A DNA stretch of 64,000 nucleotides from Naegleria gruberi (taxonomy: Eukaryota): NCBI GenBank assembly GCA_000004985.1, contig GG738884.1; one strand, 5' to 3'. This document shows positions 1 through 6,000 of the stretch, in pieces (within the stretch, counting starts at the first letter, position 1; each line of letters begins with the position of its first letter). The translations under genes were made by a program, and so were the position numbers. Below the pieces are notes generated by a model that saw only the letters and a program-made list of their open reading frames with translations, was not told where the DNA came from and made no database searches.

Positions 1-284
1 TCAAGTTGTTCAGAAAAGTTGATGGAGACAAGAATGGTATCTTGAGTGAAATTGAATTCAAACATTTACTTCACCTTATTAATCCAAATAGATCGGAAAG
101 TGATTATGCTCAATGGTTGAACTATGTAGATCCTTACAATAATCAACATATAACATTTACTGAATGTGTTACTTTCCTTTCTTCAGAACTCTTAAAGTTA
201 ATGGGTGAAAAGTCTCAAAATGATTCTGTTGATGAGGAAAATGCGGATGAGGAATTTGAATATGAAAATAATGCTGAAATGTAA
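1..284 (+). CDS. 3' end of an EF-hand calcium-binding protein; the gene starts upstream of the window.
   Basis: The ORF runs from the window edge. The motif FRKVDGDKNGILSEIEF fits a canonical EF-hand loop (D-x-D-x-N-G-x-I-x-x-x-E). It ends with an acidic tail and a TAA stop. Confidence 0.5.
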   Translation, partial: KLFRKVDGDKNGILSEIEFKHLLHLINPNRSESDYAQWLNYVDPYNNQHITFTECVTFLSSELLKLMGEKSQNDSVDEENADEEFEYENNAEM

Positions 285-297
285 AATAATAAATGGT

Positions 298-1074
298 TTA
301 CTCTTTCTTATCTTTCTTTCTCTTTTCCTTCTTTTCCTTCTTCTTTTCCTCTGCTTCCTTCTCTTTCTTTTCTTCCTTTTCCTTCTTCTTTTTCTCCTTC
401 TTTTCCTTCTTTCTCTTTTTCTTCTCCGATTCAGAATCACTGTGATCTGATTCCTCTTCCTTCTTTCTCTTCTTTTCTTCCTTTCCTAACTTTTGTGAAA
501 AATAGTCATCACTACTGATCTTACTAACTTTGGAATGTGGATCTGGTGTTTCTTCCTTTTCTTCCTTTTCTTCTTTCTTTTCTTTCTTTTCTTCTGTCTC
601 TTGGTTTGGATTTTTACCTAAAATTGCAGCCAAATCTTCTTGTGAGTAGTGGCTTGTCATCTTCGATCTAGCTCTTCTATGATGGTGAATTCTATTTGTT
701 TTGGTCTTTGTGACTACTTGTTGTTTTTCATCATCCGATGATGAACTACTTGAGTCCGATGATGATTTATCTGTATTTGTTGTTTTAAGTCTATTCAAAA
801 TATCCGAGAATGATGATGTTTTTTGACAGACAGTTCTTTCTTTCTTTGCTTCTTCTGTTGCTCCAATACCTGCAGTATCTGTTTTAACTGATACTTTTAC
901 ATGTTCCGTTATACCATCCTTTCTCTTTCCCAAACCATCACCTTCCTTCCAACCCATCTTTTCTAATAATTTGAATCCGAGTCTTGATTTATCTTCTGCC
1001 CATCTCTTATTGTTTGGGTCATCTTTAAACATGAATTTAGCACTCTTGTACTTTGGCATTTTTTTTATCTTCAA
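298..1074 (-). CDS. PINX1-like G-patch protein with a long K/E-rich C-terminal tail.
   Basis: The N-terminus has a G-patch (KSRLGFKLLEKMGWKEGDGLGKRKDGITEHVKV), which closely resembles the PINX1 N-terminus. The C-terminal tail is encoded by a TTC/CTT-type simple repeat at 300-600. Confidence 0.65.
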   Translation of the reverse strand: MKIKKMPKYKSAKFMFKDDPNNKRWAEDKSRLGFKLLEKMGWKEGDGLGKRKDGITEHVKVSVKTDTAGIGATEEAKKERTVCQKTSSFSDILNRLKTTNTDKSSSDSSSSSSDDEKQQVVTKTKTNRIHHHRRARSKMTSHYSQEDLAAILGKNPNQETEEKKEKKEEKEEKEETPDPHSKVSKISSDDYFSQKLGKEEKKRKKEEESDHSDSESEKKKRKKEKKEKKKKEKEEKKEKEAEEKKKEKKEKRKKDKKE

Positions 1075-1239
1075 TTATTTGAGGTTAACATTCAAATATT
1101 TATTTGATCGTGATGATTTTCAATTTCATCACGACATTATCATTTAAATATATTACACAGTTAAAGCTCTATCCATGTTTCTGAACTGTTATTGGAATGT
1201 GTTGAAGAAAGTCACAACAATAAATAATATTAATTAAAA

Positions 1240-1887
1240 TTAATCGGAGGTTTTTAATGCAAGACTTGGAATAAATACATTTTCAACAAGTGGAGATTCA
1301 TCATCATCGTCCTCATCCTCATGATCTTTCAAGTATTTGGTAGAGTGTAAATTTTCATCATGAATATAATTTCCTAAACATGCATTTTGTAAAAATTCTA
1401 ATAAATTATCACAGACTGCAGTTGGAGGTCTTACATCACCTAAAGTTTCATCAACTTCAATTAAATAAATTGATTCCATCTTTGTTAAATTCCATGCATA
1501 ATAGAGTGTTTCTTGAATTCCATCCTTGGCAAAAATTACAAAATTCTTAAATGTAGATTCATAATGTTGTTCCAGAATTGTTTCTGCTGAATTTTCTCTT
1601 TCTTCATCGTTAATCATTCTTAAGAAAATATTTTGAATTCTCTTTGTTTGGAATTTAATATCGAATTGATAATATGTTGATGATGGATAAATACCATACA
1701 AGTGTACTCTTCCTAGTTTTCCACTTCCATATTTTGATAGGAATTGTACATAATCTTTGATGATTTGATTATCTGATGGTATATTTACACTTTTGAATTC
1801 ATTGATCATCTCCTCTTCAGATGGTTTTGGGATCGGAGAAAGAGAAGGAATGTTTCTCAATCTAATCTCCACGTTGAGTGTTTCCAT
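1240..1887 (-). CDS. Hypothetical 215-aa protein. It may be a C-terminal continuation of the upstream CEP164-like gene rather than an independent gene.
   Basis: Clean ORF with an acidic C-terminus (EDEDDDDE). Its ATG lies 6 nt (AAAAAA) downstream of, and in frame with, the TAG stop of the preceding ORF, leaving no promoter space. Confidence 0.45.
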   Translation of the reverse strand: METLNVEIRLRNIPSLSPIPKPSEEEMINEFKSVNIPSDNQIIKDYVQFLSKYGSGKLGRVHLYGIYPSSTYYQFDIKFQTKRIQNIFLRMINDEERENSAETILEQHYESTFKNFVIFAKDGIQETLYYAWNLTKMESIYLIEVDETLGDVRPPTAVCDNLLEFLQNACLGNYIHDENLHSTKYLKDHEDEDDDDESPLVENVFIPSLALKTSD

Positions 1888-1893
1888 TTTTTT

Positions 1894-4194
1894 CTAAGTG
1901 AGTTCATGTTTTAGAGACAACAACCAGTTTCCATGCTTTAAAAACATGTCCCTTTTGTGATCTCTTTCAGATATCCACTTGTCTAACTGATTCTGGAATG
2001 CATTAATTTTTCCTTGTAGGATCTTTCTTCTCTTCTCAGTTTGTTTGAAATAATTATGCCATTTTGTTGAAATCATTTGGTAAGATTGAGATGTTTCATC
2101 TAGATTAGTTTGATCAAGTTCTGGGAATATTTTCTTGTAGGCCTTGTAGTTTTCATCAACAGGTGGTTTGTTTTGGAGCTCAATCTTTTTATGGAGAAGG
2201 GCAAGGTCTTCCTCAATTCTGTTCAATATCTTGGCAAGGTGAGACTTGTTTGTGTCAGAATCACTGCTGCTACTGGTAGATAGACTATTAGGGGAATCAG
2301 GATCTGCAGAAATATATGATTCAAAATGGCTCTGATCAATAATACTATCTTCCAGTACTTTGATTTTCTTCTTTCTTAAAGCAATCAGGTTTTGAATTTC
2401 ATTCACTCTCTTGACATCATTATTCAAGCTGTGAGCTTGCTTTTCCAAATGTTGTTTAACACTCTTCAATATCTTATTCATGTTATGCTGGGATCCATCC
2501 TTAATGATGCTTGTATTCAACATATCAGTCTTCCATTCCTCTCTGGCTTGTTCCAACATTTCTTGTCTTGCTCTAATCGTTTCTTTTTCTTGAGAGCAGA
2601 ATTCTTTTGCCTTCTTTAATTTAAGCTTTTCTTCACTAATCTTCTTTTCAGTTTTTTCCTTATACAGAAGGAATTCAGTGTTTTGTTTAGCTAATTGTCT
2701 TGGAGGGGTATTTTCCTTGTCCAAATCAGATATAGAAAGAGGACTTGGGCTTTCATACTTGTTAGATTGCTTAGGTTTCTTAGTTTTAACCAAAATTGGT
2801 TTAAGAGGTGTTGCTAGAACAGGACTTTTTGGGCCCTGTTGGACTGGTATTGGAGACAAAGTTATTGTCTCTATTTCTACATGCTTATTTGCAGGTAATT
2901 GAATGTCTGCTTGGAGACATTCATCTCTAGTTGTTTTTTCTGTTGTCTGTTGTGACTGGTCAATAGTTACAACTTTCTTAGGGGTAATTTGTCTAGGTTC
3001 ACTTGTTTGAGCAAGCATATCTTTGAATGTTTTGGTTATTGTGTTCACACCATCAGATGTGGTTTTGACTCCATCTGTTTGACAGAGACTTGATATTGTT
3101 TGTATTTCAGTTTGAGTTGTTTTGGAGAGAGAAGTCTTCTTTCTCTCAACTTCCACAATCTTTTCAACTATCTTAGGTTTTTCAACAATCTTTTCGACTA
3201 CTTTTTCAACAATCTTCTCGACTGGTTTCTCTACAATTTTCTCTATAATTTTCTCAACAGGTTTTTCGACAACCTTCTCGACTATCTTTTCTACAATTTT
3301 CTCGACTGGTTTCTCTACAATTTTCTCTACAATCTTCTCAACAAGGACCTTAGTATCAATTTTATCAGTTTGACACTCGATAGCCTTAAACGTCTTTGCT
3401 TCAGTTTGTGCTTGATTTTTCTTCAATCTAGCATTTTCCTCAAACATTTCATCTGCTTCTTGTCTTGCTAATGCTATTTGTTTCCTATTTTCAATAAATG
3501 TATCTTGGAGAGTTTGCTTGTGTTTCTTTTCCATGATATCTTTTTCGGTTTGAAGCTGAGTTATTTTGTTCCTGTACTCAACTTCCATCTTATTCTTATT
3601 CTCTCTAAGATCATTTTCTAGTTTTTCATTCTCATTATTCAAGTGTATTATCTTTTTCTGAAGTTCAATCCTTTCCCTGTTTGATAATTCAAGTTGTTGA
3701 TCTAGAGACCTTATTTTGTCTTGTAATTTGATAAGCTCTTCATTGTTTTGCGGAGATGAAGAACTTGATTCTCTAAGCTTCTTTACAGATGATGAAGAAG
3801 ACAAAGTAGTCATATTAGTAAGAGAAGGTATTTCATCTGATGATCGTAAAGAATTGAGCGGATCAAGTTTTGTTGTTGTAATTTTCTTCTTTTTCTTCTT
3901 TTTTTCCTTTTTCAATTTTTCCCTTTCCTTTGCCACTTTTTCCTTATAATAGGCATCAAGTGGATGATCCCATATTGATTCTCCTGAATTAAAATTAAAG
4001 TAATAAAGTTGACCATCGGACTGACAAGGTCTCCATCCATCAGGTAAGGGAGCTTTTATTCCCTCCAAAGCGATTGGTATTAACTCCTTTTCCAGCACAG
4101 GATCAATACCAAGAAATTCTGCATATTTTAAAACATCCTCTTCAGTAGGCTCTTCTTGCTCGATGAAGATATTGTCATCATCAATAGAACTCAT
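1894..4194 (-). CDS. CEP164-like protein with an N-terminal WW domain and a long coiled coil.
   Basis: The N-terminus ([58 protein letters not shown] followed by a poly-K run) matches the CEP164 N-terminal WW module by recall: IGIDP...EGI.APLP..W.PCQ...G..YYFNF..G.S.WDHP.D..Y, then a K-run. The rest is an extended heptad-rich coiled coil with an internal VEKI/PVEK tandem repeat. Confidence 0.7.
3140..3360 (-). repeat. In-frame tandem repeat with a 12-nt unit encoding (I/P)VEK x about 17, inside the CEP164-like CDS.
   Basis: The protein reads [31 protein letters not shown]... The antisense strand gives spurious FSTIFST and NFLYNFL ORFs in the track. Confidence 0.8.
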
Positions 4195-4314
4195 TTTTTT
4201 TCACAATATTTTAAAGAGAAACGGTTTTTGTAAGAAAATTGGCGGGAAACTTGTGAGCGCCACTTTAAAATGTAACGATAAAGTTGTTTGAGAATTTAAT
4301 TATTAATAAATAGG

Positions 4315-6000
4315 ATGAGGACCTCAATCTTGAAAACACTTAAAAATAATATTTTTTGCAAAAACAATGAAATTGAAACTTTCAATGCTTTACAACAACA
4401 TTCCACTATGCAAAATACTTGTCAAAAAACAATGCCAAAACACATTACGAATGATTACATTAAATTCAACTCACATCTCTCCTTCATTATTCACGATAAA
4501 GAGTCAGAGAACAACACTGATGATATCAACACTGTGAACAATCACGAATCATTTTATGATGATTTTAAATTTACAACTAGAATGATACCAATTATTGTGA
4601 TTCTCTATTCGGAGGAGGAAGGAAAGTACATTTATCATGATGATGTGAGAAGAGTATGTCCTAGGAATACTTTTCCAAAGTATTTACTTGCTCAATTGCA
4701 GGAAATGTTTGATGATGATCATGGGGTTTATTCAAAATTTGCTTTGATTAAATTGGGTAAATTGGGAATTAGTTTAAAGTGGAGAATATTGGATATTGTG
4801 GAAGAATTGGATGATGGACAGATTGTTAGGAGTGAAAGATATGATTCTGAAGGAGAACCAATTATTTCATTTCAAAAGATTAGTAATAATGAGCTTGATA
4901 TTTGTTTATCTGATTTTATGAATTTATTTAATTTGAAAATTGAATTGTGTCAGAAAGATATTGAGAAATCACAAGTTAAAATTAAGAAAATTGGAACATC
5001 CCACATCATGCCAATTCTTACACAGAATATGATTACATCACTTTTTGAATCAACAACAATTTCGCCTAAAATTAGACGAAATGGCCAATGTGAACATATT
5101 GTATCTTATGCATTATACAAAAACACATGCCTCTCCTATAACTTTAAACTATTCACGTACGAGAATAATGAACAAAAAATTAAGGACACAATTGAGTTTG
5201 AGTTTGATTTTGGTCAATCACTTTTACTAGTCAATCAGAATACGAATGAGATTTATCTAATGGTTTATGGAAATGATCATGGATTTTTCAAAATAATACC
5301 AAAGGGGATCGACTCTTTGGAAAATCATCAAATGGAATTAATTCCATTTGAGAACTATATAGATTTCAAACCAAAAGTGTGGAACAAAAATTCTATTCTG
5401 TCATGTCCGTTAACAGCAAGCAAATATTTGGTTCTCATTCGTGAGGTCAACAACAATGAACAATCAAGTAATAGCTATCAAAGCTTATTCACCAATGAAT
5501 TCAAATGGTTGCTGGTTGATTTAGACTACCATAGAGTAAAGAGAGTCTACCCAAGAGTTTATAAATTGCCTGAAAATGGAGTCAAAAAGAAGAAAGGAAG
5601 AGAAAAGTTTCTTTTCCCAGACGGAGATTTGAATGCAGGATACAGTGATGCCTTATTATTGAGATACATTTCACGATCGAAAGAATCAAAAGAGATTTCC
5701 TTCTCTAAAATAATGAATGAAACCCATTCCTCATTAATTCCAATGCCAGAAAAGCAAACCCTTGAGAATTTATTTGCATTTAGACCATTCCCAGAAAACC
5801 CAGAACTATTCCAAGTGCATTTATCTGTTTCTGATCGTCATTTGATATCCGTTAGGAAGAAGAATAAGAATTTTACACATGGAAAATTCTTTAGGTTTTA
5901 CTTTAAATTCAGAGATGAGGCTACATGTAAATATTCACTTTTATATCTACTTAATGAGAATGGTCAATTTTCAGATGTTTCAATTAAATTTTTTGAATAA
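4315..6000 (+). CDS. Hypothetical 561-aa protein with no recognisable domain.
   Basis: Long uninterrupted ORF with a TAA stop. It diverges from the CEP164-like gene across a 120-bp shared promoter region. Confidence 0.55.
   Translation: MRTSILKTLKNNIFCKNNEIETFNALQQHSTMQNTCQKTMPKHITNDYIKFNSHLSFIIHDKESENNTDDINTVNNHESFYDDFKFTTRMIPIIVILYSEEEGKYIYHDDVRRVCPRNTFPKYLLAQLQEMFDDDHGVYSKFALIKLGKLGISLKWRILDIVEELDDGQIVRSERYDSEGEPIISFQKISNNELDICLSDFMNLFNLKIELCQKDIEKSQVKIKKIGTSHIMPILTQNMITSLFESTTISPKIRRNGQCEHIVSYALYKNTCLSYNFKLFTYENNEQKIKDTIEFEFDFGQSLLLVNQNTNEIYLMVYGNDHGFFKIIPKGIDSLENHQMELIPFENYIDFKPKVWNKNSILSCPLTASKYLVLIREVNNNEQSSNSYQSLFTNEFKWLLVDLDYHRVKRVYPRVYKLPENGVKKKKGREKFLFPDGDLNAGYSDALLLRYISRSKESKEISFSKIMNETHSSLIPMPEKQTLENLFAFRPFPENPELFQVHLSVSDRHLISVRKKNKNFTHGKFFRFYFKFRDEATCKYSLLYLLNENGQFSDVSIKFFE

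Follow-up and report, generated by a model that had tools for sequence, protein, structure and literature searches.

The single reading frame that crosses positions 1,240 to 4,194 on the minus strand holds two independent, conserved protein-coding genes arranged head to tail: a probable CEP164 orthologue that stops at its TAG, followed by a gene with its own ATG for a predicted SMI1/KNR4 (SUKH) fold protein. We give this reading, in which the frame shared by the two genes is coincidental, a probability of about 0.9; translation of CEP164 would then end at the TAG, and the SUKH protein would be translated from its own ATG. Homology and genome comparison demonstrated the identities of the two genes, their separateness and the lack of conservation of the frame between them. 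A sequence-only reading of this DNA had described a 766-aa ORF, a TAG at 1894-1896, six A's and a 215-aa ORF in the same frame, all of which are present at the positions it gave, and had proposed stop-codon readthrough, a split or fused gene, a cryptic intron or a sequencing error to explain them, for which we found no support. The upstream gene is the ordinary N. gruberi copy of the flagellar basal-body protein CEP164, with nothing unusual at its stop codon. Feature coordinates are collected in Table 1, and "the window" denotes the whole stretch of 64,000 nucleotides that was analysed.

Table 1. Features of the CEP164 and SUKH genes and their surroundings.
Feature	Position	Strand	Remarks
CEP164 orthologue, coding sequence	1894..4194	-	766 aa + TAG; annotated NAEGRDRAFT_70383 / XP_002674432.1 'predicted protein'
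CEP164-type N-terminal domain	3910..4164	-	residues 11-95; WW domain inserted in helical bundle
Lysine run	3883..3912	-	residues 95-104, directly after N-terminal domain; from translation
In-frame tandem repeat (VEKIV repeat)	3175..3344	-	species-specific insertion; Tandem Repeats Finder periods 12/24/84
Second CEP164-conserved block	2338..2640	-	residues 519-619; strongly conserved among heteroloboseans
Conserved C-terminal tail	1897..2082	-	residues about 705-766; ends at native stop
CEP164 TAG stop	1894..1896	-	genuine terminator; also in independent metagenome reads
A6 spacer	1888..1893	-	non-coding start context of downstream gene
SUKH gene	1240..1887	-	separate gene; 215-aa protein of predicted SMI1/KNR4 (SUKH) fold, acidic tail; ATG 1885-1887, TAA 1240-1242
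Existing annotation NAEGRDRAFT_70382	1240..1617	-	125 aa, starts at internal Met91; 5'-truncated
Divergent upstream region of CEP164 gene	4195..4314	.	120 nt; common to 561-aa ORF 4315-6000(+)

The upstream gene as a probable CEP164 orthologue

The product of the 766-aa ORF is an exact match to an N. gruberi NEG-M protein, and its orthologues in N. fowleri, N. lovaniensis and Willaertia (709-759 aa) align with it from end to end. Looking for contigs that encode the identical 766-aa sequence gave no match. Forward homology searches gave 'centrosomal protein of 164 kDa-like' as the best named match outside Heterolobosea. Searches with the whole protein also returned hundreds of spurious bacterial matches due to the VEKIV repeat, so that the informative matches were only the heterolobosean orthologues and one frog CEP164-like protein. 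Residues 11-95 matched the human CEP164 N-terminal domain (PDB 7NWJ/7O06/7O0S) at E=9e-26 in a phmmer search against the PDB, compared with E=2.6e-9 for the best non-CEP164 WW domain, and this match takes in not just the WW core, which Pfam WW places at residues 50-78 (E=1e-6), but also the helices on either side. Identity to frog CEP164 is 53% over 81 aa, and a second BLASTP HSP, collinear with the N-terminal match, aligns residues 519-619 with residues 1003-1098 of the Bombina CEP164-like protein (E=2e-6). The sequence-only reading had preferred CEP164 to a generic WW domain at the N-terminus, and both the phmmer comparison and the second collinear block bear this out; the N-terminal motif and the lysine run were also found where it had placed them.

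Unlike a generic WW domain, the CEP164 N-terminal domain is a WW domain inserted in a three-helix bundle; conserved or ligand-binding residues of the human protein include A56, P59, W62, Y73, F75, F77, H86 and P87, and R93 stabilises the bundle (PMC8752127). These correspond in N. gruberi to A48, P51, W54, Y64, F66, F68, H77 and P78, and R93 to K84, a conservative change; with K84 excepted, the mapped linker and groove residues are invariant in four heteroloboseans. A lysine-rich stretch follows the N-terminal domain in all four heterolobosean orthologues, and the remainder appears to be coiled coil, as judged by sequence alone. At the other end, the pattern KW..YF.Q.EKRR..LQ.K...FQ..L.KW..ERD.KRD.F..HG.WL..LK is kept in four species to within one residue of the stop. 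The VEKIV tandem repeat is not present in N. fowleri or N. lovaniensis CEP164, and its length differs by in-frame steps of 3 nt and 12 nt in an environmental N. gruberi strain. Taken together, the protein's sequence marks it as CEP164-like well beyond the possession of a generic WW domain. A run of eight A's precedes the CEP164 ATG, and a putative E2F-like site, TTTCCCGCC, lies upstream of the gene on the minus strand at 4241-4249.

The earlier suggestion that such a protein would be notable if the organism lacked cilia does not apply, since Naegleria gruberi is an amoeboflagellate that builds basal bodies and flagella. An orthologue is therefore expected in NEG-M; among eukaryotes that form basal bodies, few transition-fibre proteins are as widely conserved as those of the CEP164 family (PMC11190437). 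By homology, the N. gruberi protein would be a distal-appendage or transition-fibre protein. Its WW-in-helical-bundle domain may recruit a proline-rich partner, as it does TTBK2 in animals, and by the same analogy the coiled-coil remainder may hold it at the mature basal body while the flagellum is assembled; we infer its basal-body localisation and function in Naegleria from these resemblances. A literature search for NAEGRDRAFT_70383, ERR1078381 and PRJEB11402 found no mention of them.

The downstream gene as a standalone SUKH protein

The existing annotation of the downstream gene is a 5'-truncated model, covering 125 of 215 aa. Starting at Met91, it leaves out the N-terminal half of the fold together with GSGKLGR (residues 54-60), a conserved motif, and the N-terminus of the full-length protein aligns among relatives from Met1. 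Homologues of the 215-aa protein are standalone proteins of 232-311 aa, and a profile search found 31 relatives, mostly 170-300 aa long. We looked for a WW or CEP164 part in these relatives, the longer ones included, and none has one.

Family-level searches connect this protein to the SUKH superfamily: Pfam SUKH_6 is matched by 17 of the 25 family members in the alignment (best E=4.2e-12) and SMI1_KNR4 by 16 (best 3.5e-11). The N. gruberi protein alone scored E=0.0097 and 16.9 bits against the Pfam SUKH models, under the 27-bit cut-off. Its AlphaFold model reached pLDDT 93.1 and pTM 0.90 with an alignment deepened by the profile search, as against pLDDT 43.8 with a 5-sequence alignment. The top Foldseek match to this model in the PDB was 3D5P, of the SMI1/KNR4 family (probability 1.00, E=1.9e-3, TM 0.59 on target), and the matches after it had E>0.4. 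The model and the family alignment indicate that the 215-aa ORF encodes a standalone protein of predicted SMI1/KNR4 (SUKH) fold, belonging to a protist SUKH family.

The junction and its possible explanations

The 766-aa ORF, the TAG, AAAAAA and the ATG of the 215-aa ORF form a single frame of 983 sense codons broken by one TAG. The continuity that the sequence-only reading had pointed out is thus present, but the significance attached to it does not stand: it is no more than chance would give and is not conserved even within the species. Any tandem neighbour has 1 in 3 odds of falling in the same frame, and an AAA AAA spacer cannot hold a stop; the frame shared by the two ORFs is a coincidence. 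The elements of the junction are also common ones in the window, where TAG ends 7 of 32 long ORFs, runs of A5-A8 stand directly before the ATG of at least 10 other ORFs, and the fraction of A at positions -6 to -1 of the ORFs is 0.62-0.75. When the upstream regions of 25 window genes were inspected by eye, an A-run before the ATG was the only general motif, and AAAAA(A)ATG also occurs at the SUKH start in N. fowleri and N. lovaniensis. The A-run is the usual Naegleria start context, not coding sequence. That there is no room for a promoter, as had been remarked, holds for the 6-nt spacer itself, the shortest same-strand spacer in the window, where the others measure about 90-300 nt. The spacer's length suggests that the promoter or transcription start of the SUKH gene would lie in CEP164 coding sequence, near its 3' end, and that the CEP164 3' UTR would overlap the SUKH gene.

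Comparison with other genomes revealed that neither the frame nor the spacing is kept. An environmental N. gruberi strain (contigs L001 and L008; 99.2-99.6% identical) carries TAG, seven A's and ATG, placing the second ORF out of frame; this A7 comes from one metagenome run in which two assemblers agree, and a homopolymer miscount is possible. It is the only indel of that strain that is not a multiple of three, the others (3 nt and 12 nt) lying inside the CEP164 coding sequence. The evidence from other species is independent of this variant: the same two genes are set 29 nt apart and in different frames in N. lovaniensis, their 159-nt spacer in N. fowleri holds four in-frame stops, and about 280 kb separate them in Willaertia. 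Downstream of Willaertia CEP164 we looked for a SUKH coding sequence that annotation had missed and found none, and on a metagenome contig the SUKH gene's upstream neighbour is an unrelated gene on the opposite strand. The CEP164 stop is at the orthologous position throughout (TAG in three Naegleria species, TAA in Willaertia), and the three Naegleria species all keep the gene order CEP164, SUKH, G-patch. Reading through that stop would add 10, 41, 11 and 3 residues in the other strain and species, versus 217 in NEG-M; the in-frame, stop-free extension after the TAG is not conserved in related genomes.

These comparisons bear on each proposal that makes one gene of the two ORFs. Programmed or leaky readthrough of the TAG, yielding a CEP164-SUKH fusion protein in NEG-M, would fit the single frame, the stop-free two-codon spacer and the retention of TAG as the stop in three Naegleria species. 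We nevertheless consider it highly improbable, as a 1-nt spacer indel abolishes the frame in a 99.2%-identical strain whose coding-sequence indels are multiples of three, the frame relation is also missing in N. lovaniensis and N. fowleri, and the two genes are not linked in Willaertia. What follows the stop is a generic A-run start context, TAG-A is not known as a readthrough context, and shuffled controls fold as well as the 120 nt that begin at the TAG (z = -0.61), giving no sign of an RNA structure downstream that might promote the event. A recent split of an ancestral CEP164 with a C-terminal SUKH domain, or a nascent fusion, would explain the adjacency and the shared frame, which occur together in NEG-M only, and is less probable still: the same conserved C-terminus ends all four heterolobosean CEP164 orthologues, SUKH relatives are either standalone or joined to unrelated N-terminal regions that contain no WW domain, and the frog CEP164-like protein, in a search with the 766-aa ORF alone and thus without the SUKH part, gave matches only to the N-terminal domain and to residues 519-619, the second block. 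Orthologue comparison, which the sequence-only reading had called for, therefore went against a split or fused gene. An error of sequencing or assembly behind the TAG, or its removal with a short cryptic intron, would be favoured by the shared frame alone, and we regard these ideas as equally far-fetched. Two assemblies of an independent Illumina-derived read set give the TAG and the sequence on either side of it without change, and orthologues stop at the same position. An intron would have to use the one GT...AG span that covers the TAG, which measures about 31 nt, and its excision would cost conserved residues of a C-terminus that four heteroloboseans keep right to the stop.

A different proposal leaves the two proteins separate and couples their expression. 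The SUKH gene of N. gruberi and N. lovaniensis might lack a promoter of its own and be expressed from the CEP164 transcript as one bicistronic mRNA, its ORF reached by termination-reinitiation at TAG-A(6-7)-ATG or by leaky scanning from an internal transcript, or its start might be embedded in the CEP164 coding sequence; expression of the small SUKH protein would then be coupled to that of CEP164 in flagellate differentiation. The short spacers of N. gruberi (6-7 nt) and N. lovaniensis (29 nt) are in keeping with such coupling, we recognised no promoter for the SUKH gene, and the gene order kept in three Naegleria species leaves room for co-regulation. Eukaryotic reinitiation after a 766-codon ORF, however, is very inefficient without special elements, and no structured element follows the stop. 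The ordinary spacer in N. fowleri and the unlinked genes in Willaertia indicate that any coupling is not ancestral. Genome architecture in Heterolobosea is also of the monocistronic type: directons hold about 2 genes each, and the spacers within them equal those between them (bioRxiv 10.64898/2026.07.29.740908). We thus think coupled expression very unlikely, if less so than any of the single-gene proposals. Were it true, the SUKH protein would be co-expressed with a distal-appendage protein in de novo basal-body assembly and could point the way to a new basal-body-associated factor; the two genes would also be arranged like an operon, which would be rare for a eukaryote considered monocistronic.

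Significance and comparison with known systems

Reading the locus as two separate genes removes a false lead, as it is most probably neither a readthrough nor a fusion. NAEGRDRAFT_70383 gains a name as the probable CEP164 orthologue, a help to studies of how Naegleria assembles basal bodies de novo, and the 6-nt same-strand spacer offers a handy case for testing how transcription units overlap in the compact Naegleria genome. Beyond such housekeeping the importance is small.

The N. gruberi protein resembles human CEP164 (7NWJ, 7O06, 7O0S, 7O3B) in its 85-residue N-terminal alignment with linker and groove residues kept, and in its layout, where the N-terminal domain is followed by a lysine run and then coiled-coil-like sequence, with a second conserved block in the C-terminal half. 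It differs from the human protein in having K84 for R93, a Q11 region that is not alignable and the N. gruberi-specific VEKIV insertion, and is about half the length of the frog CEP164-like protein (766 versus 1340 aa). Trypanosomes, like Naegleria, are members of Discoba. In Trypanosoma brucei and other protists, transition-fibre proteins of the CEP164 family likewise have an N-terminal WW domain and a long helical remainder (PMC11190437).

The 215-aa protein is like members of the SMI1/KNR4 (SUKH) superfamily, such as Bacteroides fragilis BF1740 (3D5P), in its predicted fold, and its family is matched by Pfam SUKH_6, SMI1_KNR4 and SUKH_5. Compared with these SUKH proteins, its family has additional strands at the N-terminus, an inserted helical segment, an acidic tail and a conserved C-terminal F-x-P motif; its members come from protist genomes and transcriptomes and not from bacterial toxin-immunity loci. 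As an arrangement, the pair recalls the tightly packed tandem genes of compact protist genomes, with a same-strand spacer of a few bases and a promoter and UTR that probably lie in the neighbouring coding sequence. It differs from such compact arrays in its surroundings, as the remaining same-strand spacers in the window are 90-300 nt long.

An in-frame junction between two genes

The first of the two ORFs is an ordinary predicted CEP164 orthologue in an amoeba that forms flagellates; the second is an ordinary SUKH-fold gene that has been mis-annotated. The in-frame TAG between them is real, and their shared frame is a coincidence. The sequence-only reading had described the 766-aa ORF, TAG, A6, ATG and 215-aa ORF as one frame, and this layout is accurate, with matching coordinates. 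Long ORFs with few introns crowd the window (~33% GC) and code for eukaryotic domains that include G-patch, F-box, RCC1, RGS and ABC transporter. By exact-sequence match, the 766-aa ORF is the N. gruberi NEG-M "predicted protein" EFC41688.1/XP_002674432.1 (NAEGRDRAFT_70383), and three adjoining ORFs are likewise identical to N. gruberi proteins. For the 561-aa ORF, Pfam gives no match and the protein collection searched contains no identical sequence; the ORF must therefore lack an annotation or have a different gene model. Elsewhere, convergent gene pairs have stop-to-stop gaps of 19 nt (6000/6020) and 14 nt (16083/16098), implying overlapping 3′ UTRs.

Features of the CEP164–SUKH region, with positions in the window
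Feature	Position	Strand	Remarks
766-aa ORF (CEP164)	4194 to 1897	minus	TAG at 1896-1894
A6 spacer	1893-1888	minus	directly after the TAG
215-aa ORF (SUKH)	1887 to 1240	minus	ATG 1887-1885, TAA 1242-1240; same frame as the 766-aa ORF
G-patch protein gene	298-1074	minus	long K/E-rich tail; 180 nt downstream of the SUKH gene
561-aa ORF	4315-6000	plus	divergent from CEP164
Tandem repeat in the CEP164 gene	3175-3344	minus	in frame (VEKIV repeat)
Divergent spacer upstream of CEP164	4195-4314		120 nt; contains the E2F-like box
E2F-like box TTTCCCGCC	4241-4249	minus	~45 nt upstream of the CEP164 ATG

Tandem neighbours share a frame with a prior of 1 in 3, and a spacer of only two codons, AAA AAA, cannot hold a stop. 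The single frame proposed earlier holds in N. gruberi NEG-M but not beyond it. An environmental N. gruberi strain (metagenome run ERR1078381, PRJEB11402), 99.2–99.6% identical over window positions 1–3980, has TAG, A7 and ATG in both of its independent assemblies (contigs L001 and L008), placing the SUKH ORF in the +1 frame. This is the sole indel across the 3980 bases that is not a multiple of three; the others, of 3 and 12 nt, both alter the length of the CEP164 coding repeat and keep its frame. A frame-breaking indel in the spacer alone is the pattern that would be expected of non-coding sequence between separately translated ORFs. The order CEP164, SUKH, G-patch is common to N. gruberi, N. 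lovaniensis and N. fowleri, with a spacer of 29 nt and a different frame in N. lovaniensis, and of 159 nt with four in-frame stops in N. fowleri. In Willaertia ~280 kb of a single contig separate the two genes, each of which has unrelated neighbours, and tblastn found no SUKH sequence near its CEP164.

These comparisons bear on each explanation offered for the TAG. Readthrough, suggested earlier, is unsupported: it would add 217 residues in NEG-M versus 10, 41, 11 and 3 in the other strain and species, and the 120 nt from the TAG onward show no more stable folding than shuffled sequence (z = -0.61). Sequencing error is excluded, since the TAG recurs in an independent read set and orthologues stop at the matching position. 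In all four species, C-terminal conservation of CEP164 (...HG.WL..LK...) extends to no more than one residue short of the stop. A cryptic intron would need a length of ~31 nt and would remove conserved residues. Both families are standalone wherever found, which contradicts a gene split or fusion. TAG terminates 7 of the window's 32 long ORFs. The A-run is general start context: A5–A8 immediately precedes the ATG of at least 10 other long ORFs, CEP164 included, and the A fraction at -6 to -1 before window ATGs is 0.62–0.75.

The SUKH gene and its transcription

The 215-aa ORF is a real gene, separate from CEP164. Standalone homologues from N. lovaniensis (240 aa), N. fowleri (256 aa), Willaertia (311 aa) and a metagenome contig (232 aa) align with it from Met1, and a profile run against 1.8 billion representatives recovered 31 relatives, mostly of 170–300 aa and partly from protist transcriptomes; the longer relatives examined contain no WW or CEP164-like part. 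Among 25 aligned family members, 17 match Pfam SUKH_6 (best 4.2e-12) and 16 match SMI1_KNR4. With the family alignment as input, AlphaFold gave a confident model (pLDDT 93.1, pTM 0.90), whose best PDB fold match is 3D5P, of the SMI1/KNR4 family (probability 1.00). The 125-aa reference model, NAEGRDRAFT_70382 (EFC41687.1), takes internal Met91 as its start and is 5′-truncated, because it begins downstream of the conserved GSGKLGR motif and lacks half of the fold; homologues and structure model together show the full protein to be the whole 215-aa ORF. The family, which spreads over diverse protist transcriptomes and metagenomes (e.g. Paramoeba atlantica), has a tail with a conserved acidic stretch and a terminal F-x-P-(F/S) motif (family alignment A4, relatives P0133–P0159).

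Same-strand spacers elsewhere in the window measure ~90–300 nt, versus 6–7 nt here. Transcription of the SUKH gene would most likely start inside the CEP164 coding region, at its 3′ end, and the UTRs of the two genes would overlap. By directon statistics, Heterolobosea have monocistronic-looking genomes (bioRxiv 10.64898/2026.07.29.740908), and a bicistronic CEP164–SUKH mRNA with reinitiation is very improbable.

Repeat and upstream region of CEP164

The tandem repeat of N. gruberi CEP164 is missing in N. fowleri and N. lovaniensis, and it draws hundreds of spurious bacterial matches in protein searches. The E2F-like box upstream of the gene may be a regulatory element or chance. The 64-kb window has only 3 TTTSSCGC sites; in N. 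fowleri, GCGCCAAA precedes the CEP164 ATG by ~40 nt, and GC-rich boxes occur at similar distances in N. lovaniensis and Willaertia. The spacer upstream of N. fowleri CEP164, 270 nt long, contains a tRNA-gene-like stretch on the opposite strand (~1780–1860 of L003, the N. fowleri DNA bearing CEP164) with the T-arm motif GGGAATCGAACCCGG; no tRNA-like sequence lies upstream of N. gruberi CEP164.

CEP164 identity of the 766-aa protein

Residues 11–95 match human CEP164 N-terminal domain structures (7NWJ/7O06/7O0S; the set also includes 7O3B, a TTBK2 fusion) at E=9e-26, versus 2.6e-9 for the top non-CEP164 WW domain, YAP1, and >1e-5 for most others. This bears out the earlier preference for CEP164 over a generic WW domain, as does a second collinear block: by BLASTP, a frog CEP164-like protein is 53% identical over 81 residues (E=4e-26), and its residues 1003–1098 align with 519–619 (E=2e-6). 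The CEP164 match extends beyond the WW core into the helices flanking it on either side, in keeping with PMC8752127, where the domain is described as a three-helix bundle into which a WW domain is inserted. Orthologues alignable end to end (709–759 aa) occur in N. fowleri, N. lovaniensis and Willaertia magna. From these alignments we conclude that the 766-aa protein is the predicted Naegleria CEP164 orthologue, and we infer its basal-body localisation and partner binding.

The find had been called notable if the organism lacks cilia, a proviso that does not apply, since Naegleria is an amoeboflagellate that builds basal bodies and flagella de novo (reviewed in PMC3144413). CEP164 proteins are among the most widely conserved transition-fibre proteins of basal-body-forming eukaryotes in a survey whose proteomes included N. 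gruberi (PMC11190437). The human residues singled out in PMC8752127 (A56, P59, W62, Y73, F75, F77, H86 and P87) are all kept in N. gruberi, as A48, P51, W54, Y64, F66, F68, H77 and P78, and human R93 corresponds to K84.
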